Assembly: GCA_003971905.1 (NCBI GenBank) | Contig: RSEE01000078.1 | Coordinates: 124,001 to 188,000 of the forward strand | Direction: 5' to 3' | DNA from: Moniliella sp. 'wahieum' | Taxonomy: Eukaryota | Length of the DNA: 64,000 bases | Shown: positions 9,693 to 12,284 of the stretch, piece after piece | Position numbering within the stretch: position 1 is the stretch's first letter | Layout of the letters: every line of letters begins with the position of its first letter | Made by a program: the position numbers and the translations under genes | Notes under the pieces: model-generated | What the model was told of the DNA's origin: nothing | Seen by the model: only the letters and a program-made list of their open reading frames with translations | Databases searched by the model: none

Positions 9693-10464
9693 TTAGGCCA
9701 CCATGGGTTTGGCCACCTTGCGTTTCTCTACAACTCCTGTGACGGGATCGAGCATCTGATCCAGCTGATCGGCACCAGCGCGTTAGACTTCACTCGCGGT
9801 TTGAACGGGCTGGAGAGTCGTCCAACAAGGCACGTCCGAGGGAGCGCTGGACGATGAAGCAATGGCGTAGACTACCCCCAGCTGATGGCTGCGGTGGAAG
9901 GAAGTAGGAGCGAGCATCGCCCAAGGAAATCTAGATATGAGAGGTAGCAGAAAATTGAGCGCCCGAGAGATCAATAAAACTGCGTATGTAGAGAAAGGGA
10001 GGGCACGCACCACCTCTGCACGAACGATATCGCCCGGACGGAAACAGTCTACCATCTTGACCGTGTCCTTCTGCGTCGAGCGCACATCGGGCGCGCGAAT
10101 CAGGCCTTGAAAGAGCGAGTCGGGATTGCCATCGTCGGCGGCGGCGACCGCCATAGGCGGGAGCCAGCAAGCCGCAGGGAGTCCCGTCGATTGCCAGAAT
10201 CACGCAGCTGGCTTGCCTTGGGGACACACGCACGATTCGTACCAGAACGCTGGAGCCCACTTCAGGAACAGGGAAGCGGACCCCAGCCCCACGCACCGAC
10301 ACGGCCGGGCCCGAGGTATCGAGGGTGCCCACTCGGCTCGCCACCATCCATCCTCCACGGGGAAATACGCCTTCTGCGGATAAAGCAGCGGCTGTGGCGG
10401 ATAGCGGAGCCTGAGGGATGGAGCTCACAGGCTGGCCAGGGAGCACAACAGGAGTGCGGAGCAT
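9693..10464 (-). CDS. CSL4: Exosome complex RNA-binding subunit Csl4
   Basis: N-terminal VVLPGQP; S1 domain [34 protein letters not shown], then SLGDARSYF after an intron near 9932-10010; C-terminal [17 protein letters not shown]. Confidence 0.92.
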
Positions 10465-10686
10465 CGTCAAATGTCGTTGTGGAGGTTCGGAGGGCTGGTC
10501 AGCTGCTACATTTTGGCCCAGTCAAAGCGAAATGGAGAGCAGCGGAATTGTCTGTTCCGCCGGCAGAATTTTTCAGCCTTCGCCTCCACCCAGCAAACAT
10601 AAATAGCAGCGAAATAGCTGCGTCTTCCGCTTCTTCCCAACCACCAACCACTATCGGGTAAGCATCTGATCCTCTTTTTCGCTGCT

Positions 10687-10766
10687 ATGATGCTTGATGA
10701 GTTGGCTGTATGAGTCCTTCGGGACTCGATGCCGAAAATATCTCGCTACCTAACTTTTTTGTCTGA
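10687..10766 (+). ncRNA. Candidate intronic box C/D snoRNA
   Basis: Box C-like ATGATGC/TTGATGA 10687-10700, D'-like ATGA 10710-10713, GAGTCC-TTCG-GGACTC hairpin 10712-10727, C'-like ATGCCGA 10729-10735, box D CTGA 10763-10766. Lies within GTAAGC (10658) .. GCTGAC (10800) .. CAG (10834). Confidence 0.6.
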
Positions 10767-11383
10767 GCCATTCACCTACCTGTTTGTTACGGACGGCACG
10801 CTGACTCTTTTTTATCTTGTGTGCGATGGCCCAGGCTTCGAATATACGCTTTTGCCCTCCTCAGTCATCCGTTTATGCATCTTCAGCCATGTAGCCCATA
10901 GTGATGCTGTCTCCCTTCTGTCGTCGTCCACACACCGTTACCCAGAACTCACATACCCAGGAATCAGGTTCCTCAACTCTCACACATCTCAACGAGAAAC
11001 TCGCAACTCACGGACCGTTCCGTCTTCATCTGTTACGCCCACACCAGACGGCGCAAGTTCTGCTTTCCGAGCCTCAATCCATTTGTCGTATGTTGATGTC
11101 AACGTTCAACGTTCAACTTGAATGTTCAGTACTGAACTGAACACTGAACTAACGTTTAGTCTGAACGTTTAAGCTCACTAAGCAATGACGCGATGACGAT
11201 AAACTCGCCCAATCAACTCTTCTTCTTGTCCGCGGGCGTAGGCCCTTTCCACGGACTTTGGGGGGAATAACCTGCCCCCACGATACAACACCTGACGCAA
11301 CACAGGCGGACAATGGTGACAGCCGGATGGAGGCAACGAGCATGAATTTTGGGCACGGACATGCCTACTTTTGTCGTCCAAAC

Positions 11384-12284
11384 TCATCGAGCGGTCGAAC
11401 CTCCTCGAGATCGATGCCGACAGTGTAGGAAGCGAGGTCCGTGTCTGGCTCCAAATCTCCCGTTTTCGTTGCGCTTAGCGGCAAAGAAAGTGTAGGAGAG
11501 AATGACCTCAGTCATATCTCGGCATGTTGGGTCGTCCAGCACATCCCGATCAATGAAGAAGAAGACGGGAAGGTCCACCTCCTCCCCCGCAAGAAGGCGC
11601 TGCTGTTCGAAGCAGAAACATTCTACCTTGGCAAAGTATGGTGCCACCTATCCACACATGTGTCAGTCAGTCAGGCAAGGAGAAATGGGGAGTGAGACGT
11701 ACGCGATCAGGAGCAACGTTGTAGGTGGCGATACCTACGATATCTTCTTAGAGTGGTTCTGGCCCGGAAGAAAGCGAGTGCCGTCTCGCCTGGGAGGATG
11801 AAGAGTTCCTTGGTCGAAGGGGTGAAGGCCCAGGGAGGTCGTCCGAAGTATCTGAGGTAAAGCGGACGCGGATCCTCCGCCGTGCGACACCGGAGCCAGG
11901 GACATTGGAAATGACGCCTTCGGGTCATACTGAGCCGGCACAAGACGGGAAAGGGGAGAAGCGGCCTTCCTCGTCGTCGCCGGCGATGGGGGTGCCGCCG
12001 TATCCGGTGGCCGAGCAGAAGGCCCGGTAGAAGGGCACCGCTGCGTAGCTTAGCCCAAACGCAAGGATAAATGTGGCAGACGAATAGAGGAACATGTTCT
12101 TGTTGCGCAGGCTGGCACGTTCCCGTTGCGACTCGTACGTTGCACGCACCACATCTTCCGGGGTGAGCTTGGAGCGGGCGGAGTAGGCATGCGAGATACC
12201 ACGAGCCGGCGCCACGCGTGCCATGTGTCCACGTAGGCTGCCTGCCACATGTCGGGCACCGAGGAAACGCCCCAGCATGCTCAT
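11384..12284 (-). CDS. COX11: Cytochrome c oxidase copper chaperone Cox11
   Basis: GLSYAAVPFYRAFCSATGYGGTP, PGETALAFF, APYFAKVECFCFEQQRLLAGEEVDLPVFFFID; mitochondrial-type N-terminus; intron near 11648-11703. 3' end approximate. Confidence 0.95.

Follow-up and report, generated by a model that had tools for sequence, protein, structure and literature searches.

A candidate box C/D snoRNA in an intron-like unit divergent from CSL4 in Moniliella sp. 'wahieum'

The 900-bp spacer between the minus-strand genes CSL4 and COX11 on contig RSEE01000078.1 of Moniliella sp. 'wahieum' contains a sequence with the organization of a box C/D small nucleolar RNA (snoRNA), located on the plus strand at positions 10683-10770 of the 64,000-nt stretch analysed here (the window). 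We put the probability that this is a real, ordinary and previously unannotated box C/D snoRNA at about 0.75. The narrower reading, in which it is carried by an intron (10658-10834) of a non-coding host transcript, is also favoured, with less confidence. An earlier note, made from the sequence alone, had proposed such a snoRNA, and the in silico evidence supports it through the order of the boxes, a hairpin between boxes D' and C' that is compatible with a kink-turn (K-turn), the intron-like setting and an antisense element adjoining box D'. The features of the candidate, in window coordinates, are as follows.

10683-10770, plus strand: predicted mature box C/D snoRNA of ~85-90 nt, based on the boxes, a composite pattern and sub-threshold Rfam alignments; ends predicted
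10687-10693, plus strand: box C, preferred reading AUGAUGC, matching RUGAUGA at 6/7 positions
10698-10709, plus strand: D' antisense element UGAGUUGGCUGU, forming 12 Watson-Crick base pairs with large subunit (LSU) positions 2096-2107 of the ribosomal DNA (rDNA) contig L184; G10705 is the fifth nucleotide upstream of D'
10710-10713, plus strand: box D', AUGA, matching 3/4 positions of CUGA with the GA retained
10712-10727, plus strand: hairpin GAGUCC-UUCG-GGACUC between D' and C', a perfect 6-bp stem (10712-17/10722-27) with a UUCG loop (10718-21), -10.2 kcal/mol
10726-10732, plus strand: box C', UCGAUGC, with the GAUG core retained
10733-10762, plus strand: D guide region upstream of box D, containing a run of six U; no target found
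10763-10766, plus strand: box D, CUGA, read from the sequence

Box-like motifs C, D', C' and D were present in the correct order, as the earlier note had described, with C readable as AUGAUGC or UGAUGA and D' as AUGA or UGAG (10711-14). The alternative box C is a perfect UGAUGA at 10695-10700; AUGAUGC is preferred because it leaves a spacer of 16 nt to D', compared with only 9 nt for UGAUGA, and the same form of box C is found in the Neurospora crassa snoRNAs Nc CD47 and Nc CD51 (PMC2780460). Boxes C and D span 72-80 nt, inside the 60-120 nt expected between an RUGAUGA near the 5' end and a CUGA near the 3' end. The stem capped by the C(UUCG)G tetraloop between D' and C', also pointed out in the note, is perfect over all six base pairs. 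Inspection against the rules for K-turns indicated that the C'/D' geometry suits a K-turn, with the GA of D' opposite the GA of C' (G-A/A-G) and U opposite U; the inner four base pairs of the hairpin (10714-25, GUCC-UUCG-GGAC) could act as its canonical stem. The order C-D'-C'-D, bridged by a UUCG hairpin of 4-6 bp, is one that would permit a second K-turn or K-loop.

The window was scanned for a composite pattern consisting of TGATG, 8-25 nt, NTGA, a stem-loop of at least 4 bp, 1-3 nt, GATG, 12-50 nt and CTGA. The candidate was the single match, and matches occurred in 2 of 200 first-order Markov random windows, a significance that is overstated since the pattern was drawn up after the locus had been seen. 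A perfect 6-bp stem with a UUCG loop occurs once in the 64 kb, counting both strands.

Guide targets were sought in eukaryotic ribosomal RNA (rRNA) taken from rDNA contigs that contaminate prokaryote genome records, annotated with Rfam and derived from species other than that of the candidate; the search covered rRNA, with small nuclear RNA and transfer RNA outside it. The D' guide forms a duplex of 12 contiguous Watson-Crick base pairs abutting D' (AUGA), a score equalled by 0 of 30 shuffled guides. An anchored 12-mer anywhere in the 13,408 nt of rRNA was obtained with 19 of 20000 shuffled guides, odds that are to be multiplied by ~4 for the four guide and box definitions scanned, and the match was found only after the candidate had been chosen. 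With D' read as UGAG (10711), 1 of 30 shuffles scored as well; a reading as CUGU (10706) gave only 8 bp, equalled by 17 of 30 shuffles, and both definitions were set aside. The target tract comprises the 12 nt directly 5' of the invariant LSU sequence GAACUGGUACGGAC, and it varies across taxa. Comparison of the tract yielded 11 rows that reduce to eight distinct rRNA copies, two rows being bacterial chance matches of a 14-mer and L182 being the same contig as L184. A further 118 loci in viral contigs matched the 14-nt LSU motif, none of them identified as rDNA by BLAST. Pairing of the D' guide with the eight copies was as follows.

L184 and L190 (animal- or plant-like): 12 Watson-Crick pairs
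L022 and L223: 10 Watson-Crick and 2 G-U pairs
L004 and L008 (fungal-like): 10 Watson-Crick pairs, 1 G-U pair and an A-C mismatch at guide position -4
L188: 9 Watson-Crick pairs, 2 G-U pairs and an A-C mismatch at guide position -4
L224 (yeast-like): 8 Watson-Crick pairs, 3 G-U pairs and an A-C mismatch at guide position -4

The fit of the guide would depend on the 25S sequence of this fungus itself, the copies compared being from other eukaryotes.

The same neighbourhood of the LSU is a published snoRNA target in N. crassa. Nc CD40 (EU780963) is an intronic, D'-guided snoRNA of 107 nt with target 26S-Am2062 (Liu et al. 2009, PMC2780460, Table 1), without a homologue in yeasts, plants or human (PMC2780460), whose guide UUCUAAGUUGG pairs with CCAACUUAGAA (PMC2780460, supplementary files 1 and 4). 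Both RNAs carry the guide core AGUUGG directed to the same LSU tract (CCAACU...), just 5' of GAACUGG, and their duplexes overlap by 8 nt; both place a hairpin directly after the D' guide region, and Nc CD40 uses its D' guide alone, as the candidate would, the element upstream of box D being without an assigned target in either. The two differ in that the candidate duplex is shifted by 4 nt to the 5' side of the rRNA. With D' taken as AUGA, the +5 rule points to the first C of CCAAC in the candidate duplex, whereas Nc CD40 addresses the second A (Am2062), 3 nt further downstream; selection of the A equivalent to 26S-A2062, the target of the CD_40 family, would need D' to be UGUA and would leave only 8 bp. 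The candidate is also shorter (~88 nt, compared with 107 nt), and the rest of its sequence has no similarity to Nc CD40 in a comparison made by eye only. In our view the candidate would act in the manner of CD40 and in the same part of the rRNA, and we do not place it in the CD_40 family. The fungal snoRNAome survey that names this family reports it as not detected in Eurotiomycetes (Canzler et al. 2018).

The region upstream of box D gave no comparable result. Its best match, 11 A/U-rich base pairs at L184 LSU 2801-2811, was equalled by 7 of 30 shuffles, and 9-10 bp with a small subunit tract near the Nc CD49 site included a G-U pair at position -5; neither was retained. The earlier note had instead pointed to the conserved LSU tract AAGGTAGCCAA and allowed that the RNA might be an orphan guide. 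Parts of that tract do have their reverse complements in TTGGCT (10702-07) and GCTACCT (10745-51), but neither of these words has the geometry of a guide: GCUACCU, at -18 to -12 from box D, forms 7 bp with mismatches on either side within the quoted motif, and UUGGCU(GU), adjoining D', forms 6 Watson-Crick pairs and 2 G-U pairs. As a primary target the tract was rejected, both matches being weaker than the 12-bp LSU duplex, in a comparison made by eye with the quoted motif since the actual tract falls inside a stretch of N; LSU 2178-2327 (150 nt) of L184, a complete rDNA unit, reads N, as do all fetched copies reaching that part. The orphan description thus stands for the D guide and not for the D' guide, for which the note had not found the 12-bp match.

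A search with Infernal against Rfam, suggested in the earlier note as a check, did not bear out the candidate as a member of a known family: the three highest box C/D scores, 14.5, 12.7 and 11.2 bits, fell short of the gathering thresholds of 50, 40 and 65. Below threshold, three box C/D families aligned end to end on the same strand, namely snoZ30 (E 1.4), Afu_300 (E 2.3) and DdR11 (E 5), and the alignments cover 10682-10770, 10683-10768 and 10694-10768. Other matches in E-value mode were dismissed: InvR (E 2) and sR18 on the minus strand (E 6.4), from a search of 10400-11100, as noise, and Vault (E 0.057) and ncS025, from 10672-10785, as spurious because both lean on the hairpin and the U run. 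Afu_300 (RF01509), a box C/D snoRNA of Aspergillus fumigatus, is built like the candidate, with a C box, a guide, (C/A)UGA, the hairpin G-CC-UUCG-GG-C, a degenerate C', a second guide and CUGA. Its consensus and several N. crassa snoRNAs share the D'-CCUUCGGG-C' layout of the candidate; Nc CD6, CD13 and CD22 have the corresponding arrangement of D', a UUCG hairpin and C' (PMC2780460). The Afu_300 alignment (10683-10768, 12.7 bits, gathering threshold 40, E 2.3) deletes the D' guide columns of the family in the candidate, so that the target differs, and the likeness is one of architecture, not of family membership.

The splicing signals described in the earlier note were all located, and they frame the candidate within an intron-like unit of 177 nt. 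The elements of the putative host are as follows.

10598-10606, plus strand: TATA-like CATAAATAG, read from the sequence, a possible core promoter of the host transcript or of a snoRNA precursor
10625-10657, plus strand: putative exon 1 of the non-coding host, very short and pyrimidine-rich, proposed from the sequence and the open reading frame (ORF) list
10658-10834, plus strand: intron-like unit of 177 nt with 5' splice site GTAAGC (10658-10663), branch site GCTGAC (10800-10805) and 3' splice site CAG (10832-10834)
10835-11150, plus strand: putative non-coding exon 2, convergent with COX11, judged from its longest ORF, which has no Pfam match, and from its third-position G+C content (GC3)

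The unit begins 194 bp from the CSL4 ATG (10464, minus strand) on the opposite strand, in agreement with the ~200 bp given before. The TATA-like element precedes the 5' splice site by ~52 bp and box C by ~85 bp. The 5' splice site lies 24-29 nt ahead of box C, the branch A (10804) is 30 nt from the AG, and from the end of box D it is 38 nt to the branch A and 68 nt to the 3' splice site; a distance of 68 nt falls in the range of ~60-80 nt expected for intronic C/D snoRNAs and is near their optimum. The unit had been called twice the length of most introns in the region. This holds against the one intron compared (80 nt, 9931-10010, in CSL4), and 'most' rests on that one. The U-rich word ahead of box D (CTTTTTTGTCT, 10754-10764) recurs past the branch site (CTTTTTTATCT, 10807-10817), where it forms the polypyrimidine tract.

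Judged from its reading frames, the host transcript is plausibly non-coding, in line with the earlier view that convincing coding exons are lacking. The sole upstream ATG (10533) opens a frame of 24 codons that ends before the splice site, and no ORF crosses the putative 10657/10835 junction. The longest ORF of exon 2 (78 aa, 10904-11137) has no match in Pfam, homology searches of the ORF beyond this not having been run, and its GC3 of 0.49, compared with 0.55-0.73 in neighbouring coding exons, gives no coding signal. Non-coding snoRNA hosts of the UHG/GAS5 type are short transcripts without a credible ORF that carry a functional RNA in an intron. The putative transcript resembles them in these respects and differs in having a single intron with a single snoRNA. 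In N. crassa, C/D snoRNAs are mostly intron-encoded and some of the hosts are non-coding and UHG-like (PMC2780460). Ustilaginomycotina are described as an intron-poor group in which conserved introns of RPL7 and NOG2 are retained and encode snR59-like and snR191-like snoRNAs (PMC8476143). The likeness to the candidate lies in an intron kept for its snoRNA; those hosts encode ribosome-biogenesis proteins and have their introns at conserved positions, whereas the host proposed here is apparently non-coding.

The features described above are best explained by the following pathway. Opposite in strand to CSL4, the host transcript would start ~150-190 bp away from the start codon of that gene, and its 177-nt intron (10658-10834) would probably be spliced out and trimmed by exonucleases to leave the snoRNA. 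A terminal K-turn would be made of box C (AUGAUGC, 10687-93) and box D (CUGA, 10763-66), and an internal one of D' (10710-13) and C' (10726-32), clamped by the GUCC-UUCG-GGAC hairpin. As expected of box C/D snoRNAs, which are stable RNAs of 70-120 nt, it would be bound by Snu13, Nop56, Nop58 and fibrillarin. Base-pairing of the 12 nt preceding D' with the LSU tract immediately 5' of GAACUGGUACGGAC would place the nucleotide opposite G10705 for 2'-O-methylation by fibrillarin; this is the first C of CCAAC and lies 3 nt 5' of the predicted 26S-Am2062. The D guide appears to be an orphan.

The most serious competing explanation, although an unlikely one, is that the CSL4-COX11 spacer is promoter and terminator DNA in which the motifs coincide by chance and from which no stable RNA is made. 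Several results weigh against the snoRNA reading, most of them also counting for chance. Splice-signal triples are not enriched, with 17 in the window compared with 29.2 +/- 6.6 in 30 random windows, so that such triples are as common in random sequence as here. The fold energy is ordinary (z = -1.44; 18 of 200 shuffles are as stable), and the whole window has no match in Rfam at gathering thresholds. The terminal stem, for which ~4-5 bp are expected, is weak by inspection: the preferred box C (10687) is flanked by just two pairs, G10684-C10768 and C10685-G10767, UGAUGA would have 5 of 6 positions paired and one mismatched, and computation of the duplex between the flanks of C and D returned no clean one. 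For the D guide, anchored Watson-Crick matches to the fetched rRNA stay below 9 nt, which leaves it without a target. The perfect 12-bp match of the D' guide is confined to 2 of the 8 rRNA copies, both animal- or plant-like, and fungal-like copies are mismatched at -4, adjoining the predicted target nucleotide. Two apparent frameshifts in CSL4, described below, point to possible assembly indels, which would make homopolymer lengths and exact spacings in the candidate uncertain, including the length of the U run in the D guide. The composite test was moreover devised post hoc, and the best-looking site was picked from 64 kb. Set against chance is the coincidence of several largely independent features of low probability: a composite pattern met in 2 of 200 random windows, the only such UUCG hairpin of the window placed exactly between D' and C', and an anchored 12-mer rarely matched by shuffled guides, in a tract that a published snoRNA targets.

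Searches for conservation found no homologue in metagenome contigs. A pattern combining box C, the D' guide and D', with gapped GATG and CTGA, had no matches in metagenome contigs. The S1 exon of CSL4 identified 31 loci in these contigs (50-73% identity over at most 48 aa); the intron and the whole spacer, compared with the 31 loci by BLAST, gave a best E of 0.74, for 18 of the loci the sequence upstream of CSL4 was scanned strictly for a C/D snoRNA, without a match, and COX11 was near CSL4 in 0 of 31. These loci are distant and non-syntenic, so that a missing homologue is not evidence against conservation. One of them, L220, has AATGATGCA at ~4339 on the minus strand of the locus, followed 11 nt on by GAGTTGGCTG, 3.4 kb from CSL4, resembling a C box and the guide core; the 10-mer guide match was judged to be chance, and the other boxes are absent from the stretch shown. 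The intron DNA had only chance matches of at most 20 nt in five contaminated prokaryote genomes.

A real box C/D snoRNA could also be transcribed independently from its own promoter, the TATA-like element at 10598-10606, and trimmed at its ends, with coincidental splice signals and no spliced host; we consider this less probable than chance. In its favour, the element stands at a suitable distance (~85 nt) ahead of box C, chance often yields splice-like triples, exon 1 would be as short as ~30 nt and no constraint is visible in the exons, and some fungal C/D snoRNAs are intergenic ('IR' rows, Table 1, PMC2780460). The intronic form is preferred on the predominance of intron-encoded C/D snoRNAs in N. 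crassa (PMC2780460), on the snoRNA-bearing introns kept by the intron-poor smuts (PMC8476143) and on the 5' splice site, branch site and 3' splice site standing at typical distances (24-29 nt, 38 nt and 30 nt).

A regulatory hairpin or a cluster of transcription-factor sites of a bidirectional promoter is very improbable: direct and inverted AGCAGCG(A/G)AAT repeats surround the unit, but they lie upstream of box C and leave the hairpin, the D, D' and C' boxes and the rRNA complementarity unexplained. The plus strand carries the word at 10538-10548 and again at 10605, and a diverged form of it, AGCTGCG, follows at ~10616; an inverted copy right before box C gives a 15-nt inverted repeat that is 93% complementary (10603-17/10674-88). 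This could be a common promoter element of the divergent pair or, should the transcript begin further upstream, an RNA stem around the 5' splice site.

Both flanking genes were identified by Pfam, with the following extents.

9783-10464, minus strand: CSL4/EXOSC1 gene, divergent neighbour, ATG at 10464, Pfam PF10447
11384-12330, minus strand: COX11 gene, convergent neighbour, stop codon at 11384-86, Pfam PF04442 (CtaG_Cox11, E 2.2e-22) and ORF list

PF10447 (EXOSC1/CSL4) matched two exon pieces of CSL4, at 10011-10154 (E 5.8e-14) and 10171-10464 (E 1.9e-4). The minus-strand reading of this gene changes frame twice, at 9880-9900 and 10150-10175, and neither change can be explained by an intron. 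AIDGTPCG... and the next motif are in different frames within ~20-40 nt, and HQLGVVYA and its partner motif are in different frames 10 nt apart; the metagenome relatives keep the second motif pair in a single frame. This suggests assembly indels, with runs of G and C nearby, damage to an essential gene being less likely.

Two further features of the spacer were observed. The segment 11105-11172 contains imperfect palindromes rich in AACGTT/CTGAAC, with arms of 22 nt (73% complementary) and 13 nt (85%), placed between the putative 3' end of the host and the 3' end of COX11; this may be a zone of convergent termination or polyadenylation. The 12-mer across the COX11 stop codon (11381-11392) shows 92% complementarity to GCTTGATGAGTT (10692-10703), a sequence overlapping the second C-box word, probably by chance.

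A connection with the exosome through a promoter shared with CSL4 is purely conjectural. It enters a bolder version of the snoRNA reading, in which a lineage-specific snoRNA of smut-like fungi would direct 2'-O-methylation at an LSU site that has been mapped in no organism; it would lie 3 nt from the predicted N. crassa Am2062, where the expansion segment before GAACUGGUACGGAC has its 3' foot. The CD_40 guide would have been replaced by this one or would have given rise to it by a shift of register, and the host would share one compact bidirectional promoter with CSL4, a cap subunit of the exosome, coupling the supply of the snoRNA precursor to that of the machine that trims it. We hold this version to be improbable, a little more so than independent transcription of the snoRNA.

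Wider interest in the pairing with CSL4 would depend on its conservation; as it stands, the locus is a matter of routine annotation and introduces no new principle. Apparent losses of snoRNAs in Basidiomycota, possibly failures of detection, are described in the fungal snoRNAome survey (Canzler et al. 2018). If the snoRNA is real, it would add one more guide RNA, and probably one rRNA methylation site, to Ustilaginomycotina, whose snoRNAs are poorly catalogued, and its intron would have been retained in an intron-poor genome solely as the carrier of an RNA gene.

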